In this document: positions 630 through 64,000 of the stretch, one piece after another
Position numbering within the stretch: the stretch's first letter is position 1
How the letters are laid out: each line of letters starts with the position of its first letter
From: Harriotta raleighana
Taxonomy: Eukaryota
Assembly: GCA_050575255.1 (NCBI GenBank)
Contig: JBNZDD010013726.1
Coordinates: forward strand, 806,001-870,000
DNA: 64,000 bases
Reading direction: 5' to 3'
The notes under the pieces: generated by a model
The model's input: only the letters and a program-made list of their open reading frames with translations
The model's database searches: none
What the model was told of the DNA's origin: nothing
Made by a program: the position numbers and the translations under genes

Positions 630-1511
630 CAGTCTGAAGTAGTTTTTAGTTTAAGTTCTTTATTGCCGAGTGCTTCATCTTACGGCTATGAGGTGGAGAT
701 TGCTCTTTGCAAGATTCTTTAATATTCTCTTAATTTCACATTTCAAGCAGTGACTCCTGCTGGAAGCAATATATTAATTGTTCTGATTTAGATTGTTGTA
801 CTTTGTTTCATTTAGTTGCCAAAGTTATCCTTCTAGCTCCATCTTGTGGTAAACTGTGATTGCCACAGATTGTTTGCAAAACAAAACTCTGCCTTTCCCT
901 CAAATTCTTACAAATTCAAGGTTTCTCTTTCTTACAAAAAAGGACTAGAGTTTCACAAGCAGATAATAATAATAATATCCTTATGGTTCATAACTAATTT
1001 ACTAATTGAGTAGCACAAGTGTTTTTTTTTGGCAATCGGGACTCTGGGTTTGTGTGACAGAAAATCAGGAAACTTTTTCCGAGAATATGAGAAAATAATT
1101 TCTGAGAATTATTTTGTGCAGTGCTTGTTTCCTTTTTATGTTTTTCTGCATAAATTCACAAATGCAGCAACACTGTATGGAAATGAGTATTGAATTAATT
1201 ATGTATCCATAAATAGCAACAAAAACAGTGTGGGTACCGCATAAGCACTTATAATAAGCACTGATTTAATTTGAATGGTATGTGCAGATCACATACAGCA
1301 AATCAGGGACCCCATTTTTGCAATCGGTTGGAATACAGTGGGAGCACAAGCCTTAGGGTTAGGGTAGTGTTAACATTTTCCTTTTATTCTGAAACTTTTT
1401 TTTCCCCTTTCAAAATTCAGTAATGGGTAATCATTATTCATGTTTGTTTGCTTCTATTAAGGCTGTGTGTTCACCCGGCACAGGAAATAATTTTTAGGTG
1501 TATATTTCAAT

Positions 1512-3313: not shown

Positions 3314-3622
3314 GTAAGTGTGCAGTGTAACTTGGTTATATGCTGCAGGTATTGAAAAATGCAGAAATATTTTCCCCAAATTGCAGATGGTTTGGCAAAT
3401 TTTGCAAATAATTTGATAGCTTTGTGGAAAATTGTGGAAGGTTGATTTGTACTCTTGAGAGGCACGTTGACTGAAACATCCCAGATTAAAACTTTAGGCA
3501 TATTTCCTGAACATGTAGTTTTGGTTAAAATGCTAAGAATGTTAATTTGAATAGTACCCCAGTGTAGGCAAAGCCCACCTGTGAGATATGCCTTATTACA
3601 CATTTTTTTTCTCTGCCACCAG

Positions 3623-3766
3623 GGTGCTATATATGGCATGGCACAATCCATCCCAGATCGTTCCTTGGTGACCGAGATAACACAAGGATTCTTGGACTGT
3701 CTGTATTGTACAGACCTTCCTGGTGAAAACAAAAAGCACATGAATGGAGCATCGGCGCATCATTAG
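3623..3766 (+). CDS. SGPL1: SGPL1 last coding exon, ending in TAG
   Basis: Polypyrimidine tract then ccaccag|GGT. Translates GAIYGMAQSIPDRSLVTEITQGFLDCLYCTDLPGENKKHMNGASAHH*, the SGPL1 C-terminus (GAIYGMAQ motif). Confidence 0.96.
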   Translation, partial: GAIYGMAQSIPDRSLVTEITQGFLDCLYCTDLPGENKKHMNGASAHH

Positions 3767-6700
3767 TAACAAACAAACAAAAATCTTGGTTTGATGATAA
3801 TACTGTATTGGGAAAGTGATCTGAATACTGATGATAAGAGAATTGATTTCTAGTTTTTGATTTTGCACAATCAATGCAAATCTGGGAAAATGCAATCCAA
3901 GATTTAGTTGGACCACTCCCGTGATATTTGTACCATTTTCAAAACCCAAATGCCTTTGCTTTTCCTTTCGTCACCCCTATAAGCCCCAAATAATATCTTG
4001 GTTAGAAATCCTTATTTTCTGCCATTGTTTTTGAAAATCATGAAATATTTAGAAAGATTTCAAAATGTGGTCCAGTAACTTGACCATTGGCTTACTTATG
4101 CACTGATAAATTGGAAGATGCAAAAGACAATGGCATTCACCTCAATGCCTTCTAAAAATGTCTTGATGGAAATCTCTTGAAGGAGCGATTTTACATACAA
4201 TTACTAAAAATGCTGCTATTTGTGATTATTTACCTAACAAAAATTGGGGATAATTTTGCAGCAAAAGAGAAACACCAGGTTGGTGCTCCAATGTAGTTTC
4301 CTATTTTGTGGCAGGTTGAAAACTTTCCATCTCAATTTTGCTTTCAGGGAAAATGCCAAGCAGAGGCTTGTACAAGGGAAAATGAGTAGTTGGATCACAT
4401 GAGCACACTTCCTTGCAACCTGAATGATGTTGATAAAGGCCAAAAAACTGGTTGCTCAATTGGCATCCCTCTCGATTTCGGAATCATGGGGAAAAAAAAT
4501 TACAAAAACACTAAAATTGAAACCAGAGATGATTACAGTGAATGATTGCTATTTGGAGGGCTGGGGCTAAAGTGAGGGTAGGAAGTAACCCAAATTGCTG
4601 GTTCCCTGTTGTGATTGACAGAATTGCACAAGACCATTATTAAATGCAATCAGGTTGCTTATTGTGTTTGATACCATGATTGATCTTGTCTTAATTTGGG
4701 ATGTGGAAAAATACTGAGGCCGTTTAACCCTAAACATACTTATAATTGTGAAGGAAAGAAACATGACTCTTAGTAGGTGTGAAGGTCAGTGTGATTTTTA
4801 ATTAAAAACAATATCGCTCTTTTAAGATACAAATACATCAACTCATTAAAAAATTATCCATATCTGTGCCTAAGTACCCTCTTTAATATTGAATTCAAAA
4901 GATGGATCTCTTTAGATTTTCTGATGGGGATTTTGGTTTGCATTTGTTTTTCAATTCCTTTGTTATTTTCTGTGACCAGTTGCTCCAGGACTATAACAGG
5001 TATAAATAACATCTGTGGGAAGGGCATTGATGTTTTGAAAAGCTGTTTTTTGTTTATTTGTACTGTATCAATTGCTAGGCTTTGACACGCACCAGTGTAC
5101 GTTTTACAAATGAGTGTGCTGAAAATTAACGGTACTTTAGTCATATTTTAGTCTTGCTGATTCTTATTAATCTTTATCTTTGAACATAGAGTTTTTGTTA
5201 ATCGGTTCTCATGTGCATATAATAGTAATATTGTTCTTCATCCATTTTCAGATGTACTTTTCCATGGTTAATTCCATCATGGAAAATCACCCCTTACTCT
5301 ATTGTTTGGTTAGTGATTGATACTGGAGGATTTTTGCTATATTGTTTTAATAATCTAGTAGTCACAATCGATAGCAGACAAACAAACCTGAGAAAACAAG
5401 GTTGTGCTAATTAGAATTTGCATCTGCTTGAATCGGCCTCAAGACTGGCCTGTGGCATTATGGATGTATCACAATTTAGGCTAAATATATGCACAAATGT
5501 CTTCAGAGCAGTTGAATTTCAACTATCGCAGTCGGCTACCACTTATTCTTTCCCTCTCCCATGCATTCTCCCTCCCTAATGTTCTCTGGAGTAAGGAAAA
5601 TGTTAAATGTTTTTTTCTAAACGGTTGTTGCATTACCTATACTGATTTACTGTACCCATGGTGTGGAGATGATATATGTGCTTCACATTCCACTGAGAGA
5701 AAGTGCAGTCTTATTGATGTTGATGTACTTAAACAAGACTTGCAGGACAAACTTGTTTTTCAGAGAAAGCTAACTTAAAACAGTTTTTAAACCAGAAACG
5801 TGACTGCTGTGGTTCTCAAAATTGGAGGAGGTGTATTTTATACTGCTGTGGTAATATCTTACAAGCGTTTTTAAAAAAAGATTCTGTAGAATATTTGATT
5901 TGATTATCATGACAACAGTGAGAACCATAACTTATACATTTTCCTGTAAATAAAAATGTACAATACAGGTGTTTTGGGAACATAAGAATGAATCATGTGT
6001 AAGTACAACTTTTCTTCCAGATCAGAACATTCTTTTGACAGTTATTAATCTTCCAGTTTCCAGTGTCTAAATGAGTAACTGGAAACTGGCTACAGTGGCA
6101 ATTTTACTTCCATTATCATCGGTAGGAACTAATAATAAAATGTTTAGTGTGTAGACAAGACATCCCTTCTGTGCCCATTACACAAGATCAGTACATCCAT
6201 TGTTTCTTCCCATTTCCTTATTAAATCATGTTTCTAATGCAATATACTACAATCAAGTGATTATTTTCACTATTCAAAAGGGAAGACAGGCCTCCTGTTC
6301 ATCTTTGTTTCGGACATATTATGGCACTGGTGTTATTAGGAAAAGAGAGCTCATCACCTTATTTTAATGAGATGTCTTGCATCCTGTACACCTACTGTAA
6401 GCCATTAATAGATCAGAGGTTGCACAACTTAGCCATTAAGAATGTGTGTGGTACCACTTTGATATTTAAATTTGGTTCTAAGAACATGGAAGGCTCCAGG
6501 GAATTAATGCCAAACGGTTAGATAATTGGGTCGGCCTTTTTAATTGCGAATCTACTAATTGGATGCTATGTCTCCATAGACTATTTAAGATCAAGCTTAT
6601 GTGTATTACAAAACTTGTTAAATTATAAGAGTCTTTCACACAAGTCGGAGGATTATTTGTTGGACCTGACTGAACCCTGTATCTTCTGAAAAACTGAAAT

Positions 6701-55316: not shown

Positions 55317-56478
55317 CAGTAAAGGCCCATTTATCTGTGACCCGATCAACTGTAACTTCCGTATAACCGGCACCTAAAAAAAGATCCCCATTCGAATAAC
55401 CGGATCTTATCCAGCAGAATCGCAGTGGCATATTTAATGAGTCGATAGTCGCACGAGAGTACAGTACGATTAGTTCTGAATGCTGCTAATTTTTGCTCTT
55501 AAAGTGGCACTGTCAGTTTTTCCTCTCCCTCTCCTTTTTTTCTCTCTCCTTTTTCTTTTTCTGTCTCTCCCTTTCTCTTTCTATCTCGTCCCCATTCTTT
55601 CTTTCCCTCTCTCTGATGGATACTATGTATTGCCTGTGTAGTCTGACTGTATAGTTGGTTTATACATTATTTTGGTGGGGGGTGGAGTGGGAGAAGGAGA
55701 GAGAGATAGGGAGAGAGAGGGTGGGAGGGAAAGAGGGGAGGAGAAAGAGAGAGGAGTGGGAGGAGGAGAGAGAGTTGGGTGAGTTGATTAATTTAGATGG
55801 AAAATGAGAGGAGTGGAGGGGTGTTNGTCTCTCCCTTTCTCTTTCTATCTCGTCCCCATTCTTTCTTTCCCTCTCTCTGATGGATACTATGTATTGCCTG
55901 TGTAGTCTGACTGTATAGTTGGTTTATACATTATTTTGGTGGGGGGTGGAGTGGGAGAAGGAGAGAGAGATAGGGAGAGAGAGGGTGGGAGGGAAAGAGG
56001 GGAGGAGAAAGAGAGAGGAGTGGGAGGAGGAGAGAGAGTTGGGTGAGTTGATTAATTTAGATGGAAAATGAGAGGAGTGGAGGGGTGTTGGGTTTTGAGC
56101 CATTGAGATGCCAGACTGACTGAATGTATGTGTGAAAGAGAGAGAGAGGGAAGGAGGGAGAGAAAGAAAGAAAAAAAGGGGGAAAAACCGCCAGTGCCAT
56201 TTTAAGAGGAAAAAACTCTTCCGTCCGCCATTGTAGAAGTTTGCTTTGTGATTGTGTGCTGTGGTTATAGACTGTAATTGATATTTATTGCTTTATTGGT
56301 AAGTATCCTTCAATAATCTGTGATATTTAGTCTTTTATTAATATGGTATGTTTAAAAAAAAAATCTTTTTTTGTGTTGGGTTTTCGGCGTCGATATTCGA
56401 CCATATTCGAATGTCTGGCATGCCGTTTAACTGGCATTGGTCAGGTCCCAAGGGTGCCGCATAAACAGGGTATTACTG
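55317..56478. mobile_element. Tigger/pogo-like non-autonomous DNA element related to the MITE at 2307 (opposite orientation), with an internal CT/GA-rich insert
   Basis: TA|CAGTAAA...TTACTG|TA termini. The right end TGCCGTTTAACTGGCATTGGTCAGGTCCCAAGGGTGCCGCATAAACAGGG matches 2993-3049. 55563-55825 is duplicated at 55827-56089 around an N (artefact). Confidence 0.65.
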
Positions 56479-62358: not shown

Positions 62359-62727
62359 GGACACTGTGCTCCAGGACACTGTGCTCCAGGACACTGTGCC
62401 CCAGGACACTGTGCTCCAGGACACTGTGCTCCAGGACACTGTGCCCCAGGACACTGTGCCCCAGGACACTGTGCCCCAGGACACTGTGCCCCAGGACACT
62501 GTGCCCCAGGACACTGTGCTCCAGGACACTGTGCTCCAGGACACTGTGCTCCAGGACACTGTGCTCCAGGACACTGTGCTCCAGGACACTGTGCTCCAGG
62601 ACACTGTGCTCCAGGACACTGTGCTCCAGGACACTGTGCTCCAGGACACTGTGCTCCAGGACACTGTGCCCCAGGACACTGTGCCCCAGGACACTGTGCT
62701 CCAGGACACTGTGCTCCAGGACACTGC
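62359..62727. repeat. 15-bp minisatellite GGACACTGTGC(T/C)CCA, 24 units plus a partial unit
   Basis: Counted directly. There are two unit variants (16 T, 8 C) and no spacers. Confidence 0.98.
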
Positions 62728-63226
62728 TGATGACAGCCTAGCCAGGAATGGATCATAGGTAGGATTTGGAAAGGCAGATCGGTCATTGGGTAGGGACTGT
62801 TTCCAACTGCTCAGCTTTCACTCTTGCATTATCCTTGAAAAGGAAAGGGAAAATGAACACCTTGGGACGTCCTCCCAATGTGAAGGGGGCTCTATAAATA
62901 TAATTTGGATGTTGTTGTTGTATCCCTGCAAGCCAAAGTCCTCATGGGTAGGGTGATCCTAGCTGGACAACCGGCCAGAAAGCTTGCCAGACAGTGCTAT
63001 CAATGGCAAACTATACGGTTTCAGCTGGATGGACTGCAGCAGTATCCTGACACATGTAATGGAGTACCTTAGCTTTGGCGCTTTGGTACCTCTACCTAAT
63101 ACTCTCCAGAATTAGATAAACAGGATGCATCCATCCAGATAGAGAGTGCAAGTTCCATTCCAATTAATCTCTATAATTTCTATGTATAGGGGGATACATG
63201 TTTGGTTTGGATACTCATAAGCATGG

Positions 63227-63967
63227 TGTTGGGATATGGAGGTATTAATAATAATAATTATAGTTAGTTCCAATCAGACAACAATTAAAACAATCTATTA
63301 ACAACATAGGCATAATCAGTAATCTTGAGCAAAAGGGAGAGAAGCAACTTATCTGCACAAAACACCAGATGGATATCGGGGAGTAAAGGTTCAATTTGGG
63401 AAATTGCCAAGTGAGTAGCAGGAGAGCCATCTCAAGGTCTGGGAAAAGAAGGGAGGCAAACAACTCCCTACAAACCTGGCCTTTTAATTGTCTGGTTTTG
63501 ATATCGCTTCTGGACAATGTCCAAGTGATCAACTGGCTGAGTTAGTTATAATGAGGCTGGTGAGAAGTATAAAGATTGGAGAGAAAGAGTGGCTCATTAC
63601 AACAGTTGGGGATTGTCTCAAGGTAAACTGAGATCTCCAGCCTGCCACTGTTGTCCAGAACTACTAGAATGGATCATAGTTCCAGTTGTTCTGTTTAAAG
63701 ACAGGTAAGGGTCAGTTAGAGAAAGGAATACAGTATAATTGGGGTACCATCAGAGAAAGGGACAGAGAGGGTAAGTATTGTGAGAAGCCTGAATCTGATT
63801 TATGGTGTACCAGCTTGTAACTAGCTTTAACTGATAGTATGTTTTATTTCTCTTTCACTTTGTTTTAATTATTTGTATATCTCTCAAAAGTACTAATTGT
63901 AATAAAATCATTTACACCTGTACCAAGGATTGGTGGACCCTGACTCTCGGGATCTAGAATCCCAATA
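63227..63967 (+). mobile_element. 5' LTR (741 bp) of an endogenous retrovirus or LTR retroelement
   Basis: Terminal inverted repeat TGTTGGGAT...ATCCCAATA (8/9), TATAAA at 63568-63573, AATAAA at 63901-63906, and a PBS 3 nt downstream. Confidence 0.8.
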
Positions 63968-63970
63968 AAT

Positions 63971-63988
63971 TGGTGACCACGAAGGGAC
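63971..63988 (+). promoter_or_regulatory. Retroviral primer-binding site complementary to tRNA-Arg
   Basis: TGGTGACCACGAAGGGAC matches 17/18 to TGGCGACCACGAAGGGAC, the complement of the vertebrate tRNA-Arg(TCG) 3' end GUCCCUUCGUGGUCGCCA (tRNA sequence from memory). The mismatch is CpG>TpG-like. Confidence 0.85.
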
Positions 63989-64000
63989 CCAACAGTAGAT

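Follow-up and report, generated by a model that had tools for sequence, protein, structure and literature searches.

The snakehead retrovirus (SnRV), a complete exogenous virus, reportedly primes with tRNA-Arg. According to PMC2717909, its gag combines a coiled coil at the N terminus with a single zinc finger. Snakehead-retrovirus-like endogenous retroviruses (ERVs) are already known in chimaera genomes: according to the available part of Han 2015 (PMC4422223), CmiERV scaffold 2 of Callorhinchus milii belongs to CmiERV lineage I and clusters with the snakehead retrovirus. Non-autonomous ERV families have been described as well, among them zebrafish BHIKHARI (Bik-1/2) and chicken ENS-1, which the accessible part of a preprint (bioRxiv 10.1101/2024.03.25.586437) presents as families thought to be mobilised in trans.

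We have analysed an element at the right edge of a 64,000-nucleotide stretch of Harriotta raleighana DNA (JBNZDD010013726.1:806,001-870,000, from an assembly of 1.10 Gb in 13,732 contigs), to which we refer as the window. A first-pass annotation, made from the sequence alone, had proposed that a complete LTR and a primer-binding site (PBS) at this edge form the 5′ end of a provirus, with its genes to be looked for in the next 5-13 kb. We find it highly probable that the locus is a single LTR insertion of 1.4 kb that carries a primer site for tRNA-Arg, is flanked by a 4-bp target-site duplication (TSD) and lacks both pol and env, being likely a dead member of a non-autonomous family that arose from an ERV of the snakehead-retrovirus-like kind; the element likely descends from the type known in chimaeras. 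A search of the open literature, with Repbase and Dfam outside its scope, returned no description of an Arg-primed family of this kind in the available parts of its sources (including PMC4422223, PMC7947760, PMC5210030, PMC2717909 and PMC8672886).

As far as the available part of the published material extends, the window family resembles CmiERV scaffold 2 in having TGTT...AACA ends, a spacer of three bases between LTR and PBS and, ahead of the 3′ LTR, a similar TCAAGGTG junction. The two differ in that the PBS is Arg(UCG) in the window element and of the Ser type in scaffold 2, in that the LTR ends diverge after TGTT, and in that the scaffold 2 env is by eye of the gamma type, whereas the env-like open reading frame (ORF) of one relative of the window element, L155, has no TLV_coat match. 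Unlike CmiERV lineage I as described there, the window copy is without any pol or env. A possible likeness to SnRV lies in coiled-coil-like Pfam matches and a weak zf-CCHC match in the gag of the relatives and in reverse transcriptase (RT) motifs that look alike by eye; in contrast to the exogenous virus, the window copy is a deleted endogenous one. With BHIKHARI and ENS-1, in the accessible part of their description, the window family shares LTR boundaries, a lack of pol and a gag-derived interior, whereas BHIKHARI is lokiretrovirus-derived with an intact functional gag, the gag of the window family is in fragments, and the window copy lacks most of its 3′ LTR.

Structure of the insertion and its target site

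The features of the insertion are listed in Table 1. The 5′ LTR begins with TGTTGGGAT and ends with ATCCCAATA, and both termini, as well as a TATA box followed by a poly(A) signal, lie where the first-pass annotation had placed them. These inverted termini are complementary at 8 of 9 positions, with the 3′ end of the LTR reading TA instead of CA; the true right end of the element is ATCCCAACA, and the ends of the whole element are complementary at 9 of 9 positions, giving TG...CA with short inverted repeats. A repeat search of the window did not list the 9-bp termini. Elsewhere in the genome there are 39 long matches to the LTR at 84-93% identity and one fragment (40 scored of 1662 candidates), and 36 of the 39 begin at LTR position 1-4, which is more than chance would give.

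Table 1. Features of the insertion, its surroundings and a related subfamily. Plain numbers are window positions, extended past 64000 where necessary; L numbers denote separately retrieved loci.
Feature	Position	Strand	Remarks
Older high-copy repeat hosting the insertion	62830..63222	.	Resumes after the right TSD
Left TSD, ATGG	63223..63226	+	Partner at L021:1629-1632 (extended 64629-64632)
5′ LTR	63227..63967	+	741 bp; TATAAA at 63568, AATAAA at 63901; U3/R/U5 borders inferred
PBS, tRNA-Arg(UCG)	63971..63988	+	17/18 Watson-Crick pairs and one G-U
Start of leader	63989..64000	+	Runs on to L021:1391 past the window
Exact 147-bp duplication around a single N	L021:1094-1240 / 1252-1398		Within leader region; likely assembly artefact
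Remnant of gag start	L021:1392-1504		~38 codons; short reading frame from 64392
Last ~120 bp of 3′ LTR	L021:1505-1628		Tail from ~64505, right end at 64628; without polypurine tract or U3
Copies of young subfamily	L072:6044-~9370, L070, L073, L068+L069, L066+L067

The annotation had also recognised an 18-nt PBS 3 nt downstream of the LTR, and a spacer AAT (63968-63970) does separate the LTR from the PBS, whose sequence is TGGTGACCACGAAGGGAC. Its suggestion that the PBS be matched to the host tRNA set led to one host tRNA gene with a complementary 3′ end, found by pattern search and called as tRNA-Arg(tcg) by ARAGORN; the pairing given in Table 1 was scored with CCA added to the end of the tRNA gene. 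No tRNA gene was found in the window itself. Genome-wide, the 18-mer pattern occurs at 14 sites, compared with none for the reversed control; 12 of the 14 lie directly behind an LTR end of the window element's family and 11 of the 14 are perfect (18/18). The PBS is no sufficient guide to the lineage, because the published elephant-shark lineage member has a PBS of the tRNA-Ser type. We also note an unrelated LTR family with the same perfect tRNA-Arg PBS and a gag-like ORF of its own (L042 and L046; L083, L084).

Sequence past the window edge was read in the next 29 kb (L021-L023), where the position in L021 equals the extended position minus 63000. The view that this is not a solo LTR and that internal sequence lies beyond 64000 was borne out, since a leader, the start of gag and the tail of a 3′ LTR follow; the element ends 628 bases past the window edge, some 660 bases beyond the 5′ LTR. 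As assembled, the insertion is 1402 bp long including the 147-bp duplication, which, as an apparent assembly duplication, accounts for 147 bp of the ~540 bp of interior after the PBS. With this interior and ~120 bp of 3′ LTR, and with no pol or env, the locus falls far short of the provirus that had been expected. A search downstream for gag, pro, pol and env, which the annotation had proposed, gave nothing of a full-length provirus in the 29 kb except for the ~38 codons at the start of gag; tblastn with gag, pol and env queries had no match in L021-L023, a repeat on L021 had none either, and no ORF in the next 10 kb (L021) is longer than 162 aa. The second LTR that had been anticipated is present in its last ~120 bp only and the polypurine tract is absent, so that the two complete LTRs and the tract of a full-length provirus are not found. 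The TSD, by contrast, is as had been predicted from positions 63222-63226, with ATGG directly after the 3′ end. Over its initial ~20 bases the 3′ LTR piece is closer to another LTR subtype than to the 5′ LTR of the element itself, a feature that a simple deletion leaves unexplained.

The insertion lies within an older high-copy repeat, of which we checked 14 copies. Seven of these (two of them identical) run uninterrupted by eye from the left flank to the right flank, with blastn matches in three; 11 of the 14 align up to the junction, and among these one continues after a short gap and three do not continue. Because repeat copies cross the site uninterrupted, both flanks represent one site and ATGG is a true duplication. 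A tandem array nearby (62359-62726) contains 24.5 copies of a 15-bp unit with a 98% match, and adjoins a LINE fragment with an RVT_1 match.

The 147-bp duplication is likely to be an unmerged overlap, because sister elements hold the segment as a single copy and because the same artefact occurs at a single N at 55826 in the window, where an exact 263-bp duplication (55562-56090) flanks the N and is itself likely an unmerged assembly overlap. The duplicate halves across the N within the element are 100% identical, whereas other family copies are 83-89% alike, and both sides of the N therefore come from one copy. The deletion junction is known from this assembly alone. Public contigs (four runs, one study) are neutral evidence, as none among the pieces listed spans the deletion junction or the right end; 11 public sequencing runs match the locus, all at ≤0.43 of words, and no RNA run is among those listed.

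Sister copies and coding relatives

The sister copies of the window element are solo LTRs or two-LTR elements with decayed interiors of 1.4-2 kb. Nineteen LTR copies were fetched and both ends could be located in 15, of which two are 3′ LTRs; among 13 informative LTRs a 4-bp TSD is exact in four, has one mismatch in five and is lacking in four. Matches to the interior number 76 in the genome (40 scored of 269 candidates), and a search with the leader recovered seven other loci (eight candidates scored). Three copies (L034, L037 and L039) extend from the PBS to the 3′ LTR over 1.4-2 kb without retroviral ORFs, and in all three the purine-rich junction before the 3′ LTR is conserved, whereas the window copy is without it.

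A young pol-less subfamily of ~3.3 kb, whose copies are 93-99% alike and whose LTR pairs have a K2P distance of 0.017 (2 of 2 measured), shares its U3 and 3′ interior with the window family and has a different R/U5; in L071, the copy that was read, its PBS is of the tRNA-Ser(AGA) type. Its similarity to the window LTR stops at 63704, the first of two GGTAAG splice-donor-like sites (63704 and 63770) located upstream of the poly(A) signal in that LTR. On the minus strand of L071 (3887-4900) there is also a different LTR end with a 249-aa ORF that has a myristoylation-like start, fused to an element of the Ser subfamily, and part of this stretch is found in L074 too; the PBS behind this LTR end is presumably of the tRNA-Pro type.

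Lacking pol, the window copy can be assigned to a lineage only by way of relatives, to which ~50 bp of LTR end and PBS and a gag motif of ~20 residues connect it. Gag-like ORFs with the motif of the window reading frame occur behind the same LTR end and PBS at seven loci (L078, L149, L151-L154 and L156). A gag profile of these seven pieces, from which the window was excluded, recovers the window peptide with an E value of 3e-5, compared with 0.3 for the next best (3156 segments, 93 kb); the query of the final gag search had been trimmed of a LINE fragment. Over the LTR end and PBS the window element is 80-91% identical to L151, L078 and L152-L154, and its U3 is 83% identical to that of L156. 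The Pfam matches to coiled coils and zf-CCHC in the gag of these relatives are below cutoff and are accompanied by a CCHC motif; the window copy keeps the start of gag only.

L151, a decayed element, spans ~7.9 kb, retains remnants of an LTR at each end and has a 4-bp duplication (ACGG) and the order gag-pro-RT-RNase H-integrase (IN). It agrees with the window element in its LTR end and gag motif, and its PBS is a degenerate one of the type seen there. Its Pfam domains are RVT_1, RNase_H and rve, with the RNase H set apart from the RT, and the closest Pols carry two RNase H-type domains; MLVIN_C, TLV_coat and RVP, which are class I marks, are absent by Pfam from the L151 and L155 pieces and occur solely in the unrelated ERV whose gag holds nested pieces of the family and in the relatives of that ERV. 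The RT shares 49-53% identity with the five amphibian and coelacanth Pols nearest to it, compared with 32-36% for class I rows and 28-30% for Gypsy rows, the class I and Gypsy labels being our own and based on Pfam content and source names, and its best match in PDB is the foamy RT (6e-19), followed by Ty3 (2e-14) and an MLV-type RT (2e-11). The RT phylogeny that the annotation had called for could be built for this relative, not for the window copy, and gives the L151 group a support of 92/89 in a tree with no labelled SnRV row. The integrase has its best match in the Callorhinchus protein P0032 (57-62% identical), and the IN tree, which likewise has no labelled SnRV row, joins L151, P0032 and a Xenopus Pol with a support of 99/97. 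A match by eye identifies P0032 with the CmiERV scaffold 2 integrase, which ties L151 to CmiERV lineage I as given in the available part of PMC4422223; and in the available part of the supplement of Wang and Han 2021 (PMC7947760) the motif of the L151 RT before YVDD is by eye like the SnRV row and unlike the Loki rows. The pol of the relatives thus fits the snakehead-retrovirus lead of the annotation. No relative of P0033 was found in viral contigs.

From these relatives we infer that the window element is a retrovirus rather than a Gypsy element. The annotation had held that the lineage could not be fixed without pol; this stands for the window copy, which has none, and is relaxed to the extent that the choice of retrovirus over Gypsy can be made through its relatives.

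Helpers existed, because a genome search with the RT piece of L151 gave 71 RT matches in 150 scored. The same matches suggest that several further ERV families of the L151 type or of related clades are present. None of eight further RT-bearing loci shares the LTR end or the interior of the window family beside its RT; one of the RT-bearing loci, L172, holds an antisense piece of a window-family LTR.

In L155, pieces of an env-like ORF (3451-5186) follow a snakehead-like integrase, with a hydrophobic, fusion-peptide-like stretch before a long helix. These pieces have no Pfam match at E 0.01, no match to TLV_coat or gamma-type env and no useful match in PDB; a single-sequence fold has a pLDDT of 36, and there is a weak Atlas lead to negative-strand RNA viruses (score 0.76).

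Nested pieces and competing explanations

L085 shares its LTR end and interior sequence with the window element and has an exact Arg PBS; remnants of capsid, RNase H and integrase come after these, and relatives of its coding element carry MLVIN_C and TLV_coat domains. Mapping showed that in L085, L107, L108, L111, L112 and L114 the LTR and interior pieces sit between the matrix and capsid parts of the gag of another ERV, and that L109 and L117 have interior and the first part of the LTR at the same gag position. This host ERV has a leader different from that of the window family, and a different PBS too in L108 and L111, where it was read; the window LTR has no significant alignment to its gag (scores of 23-31, against a shuffled maximum of 38-41). 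The class I ERV of L085 was accordingly dropped as a candidate parent, and we regard loci of the L085 type as chimaeras formed by nesting or recombination. Since pieces of the family's LTR and interior lie inside the gag of an unrelated class I-type ERV without RT, the family is recombinant and its ancestry mixed. The loci L109/L110 make up a tandem array of 5.4 kb. A class I-type ERV family (L104:762-7381, L105, L106 and L116) contains gag, protease, RNase H, integrase and env pieces, with no RT motif found at these four loci; the LTR pair of L104 is 99% identical.

A 4-bp TSD is typical of class I ERVs, and this, together with the layout of L085, might point to a class I (epsilon/gamma-like) parent rather than a snakehead-like one. 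We consider such a parent highly improbable: the nesting between matrix and capsid largely refutes it, the window LTR fails to align with class I-type gag, and the start of gag in the window matches the type of L151, which has a 4-bp duplication as well. Derivation from a Gypsy-type retrotransposon or a lokiretrovirus is extremely unlikely, although the closest proteins carry the database names 'Gypsy retrotransposon integrase-like' or 'NYNRIN-like', Ty3 RT is second to foamy RT in PDB, and the env-like ORF of L155 is not of the gamma type and has its lead to negative-strand RNA viruses. Against this, the separation of RNase H from RT in L151 and the two RNase H-type domains of the closest Pols, the low RT identity to Gypsy rows compared with the amphibian and coelacanth Pols, and the distance of the Gypsy rows from L151 in both the RT and IN trees all speak for a retrovirus; the motif before YVDD sides with SnRV and not with the Loki rows, and in the available part of Wang and Han 2021 (PMC7947760) lokiretroviruses are present in none of three Chondrichthyes genomes.

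The short form could also be an assembly collapse or misjoin at what is really a longer two-LTR element or a full provirus, given the single N and exact duplication within the element, the similar artefact elsewhere in the assembly and the large number of contigs. This is quite unlikely, since the identity of the duplicate across the N exceeds that among other copies, the deletion junction is found ~260 bp past the N, the TSD and the two flanks agree with a single site, and the tail of the 5′ LTR is 88% identical to its own 3′ piece and ≤85% to the other loci giving a match (25 tried). Very unlikely, too, is the proposal that the deleted form of 1.2 kb is mobile in its own right, as a TRIM-like mini-element, or a recombinant of two family copies; the start of the 3′ piece does look like another LTR subtype, and in L036 an LTR, a short leader and the tail of a 3′ LTR follow one another in much the same way, with a different junction. 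The window junction recurs in none of the seven other leader-bearing loci (eight candidates scored), the polypurine tract and 3′ U3 are absent, and the intact TSD argues against exchange between distant loci.

Origin, age and significance of the insertion

Under the preferred explanation, a single insertion from a non-autonomous, snakehead-retrovirus-like family, transcription from U3 in the 5′ LTR of a short family member would have made an RNA for which a coding relative supplied packaging and reverse transcription in trans, with tRNA-Arg(UCG) priming at the PBS, and the product would have integrated with a 4-bp stagger into the older repeat. A later deletion would then have taken out the remainder of the interior together with the polypurine tract and the U3 of the 3′ LTR. 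The replication steps are those of standard retroviral replication, in which reverse transcription yields two complete LTRs; because of this, and because the left LTR is complete, the deletion is placed after integration. Without a polypurine tract and 3′ U3 the window copy would be unable to make new copies, and its LTR could at most still serve as a promoter.

Between the tail of the 5′ LTR and the 3′ piece there are 13 differences in 103 sites (K2P 0.138, with a raw interval of 6-19%), and the LTR divergence of coding or gag-bearing relatives is 0.071-0.115 in five and 0.203 in one. The LTR-LTR dating that the annotation had proposed thus provided a divergence, but an absolute date was rejected as unconstrained, being 31 or 314 My depending on which rate in the available part of Han 2015 (PMC4422223) is applied. 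The insertion is old and undated.

A broader and more speculative scenario, which we regard as rather unlikely, is that of a long-lived pol-less swarm that swaps U5/PBS modules (Arg, Ser and Pro-type) and recombines across retrovirus classes, with snakehead-like LTR and gag pieces coming to lie inside class I-type proviruses without RT. Its Arg-primed parent would have had a non-gamma env, perhaps related to negative-strand RNA virus fusion proteins, giving a loki-type env on a snakehead-type pol in a cartilaginous fish.

As a dead fragment, the window locus is of little importance in itself. It does, however, mark an Arg-primed, snakehead-retrovirus-like family in a genome of the cartilaginous-fish type, in which both primer-site swapping and cross-class chimaeras are seen among pol-less elements, and it can be used to study how non-autonomous ERVs recruit their helpers and which envelope the snakehead-like clade carried.
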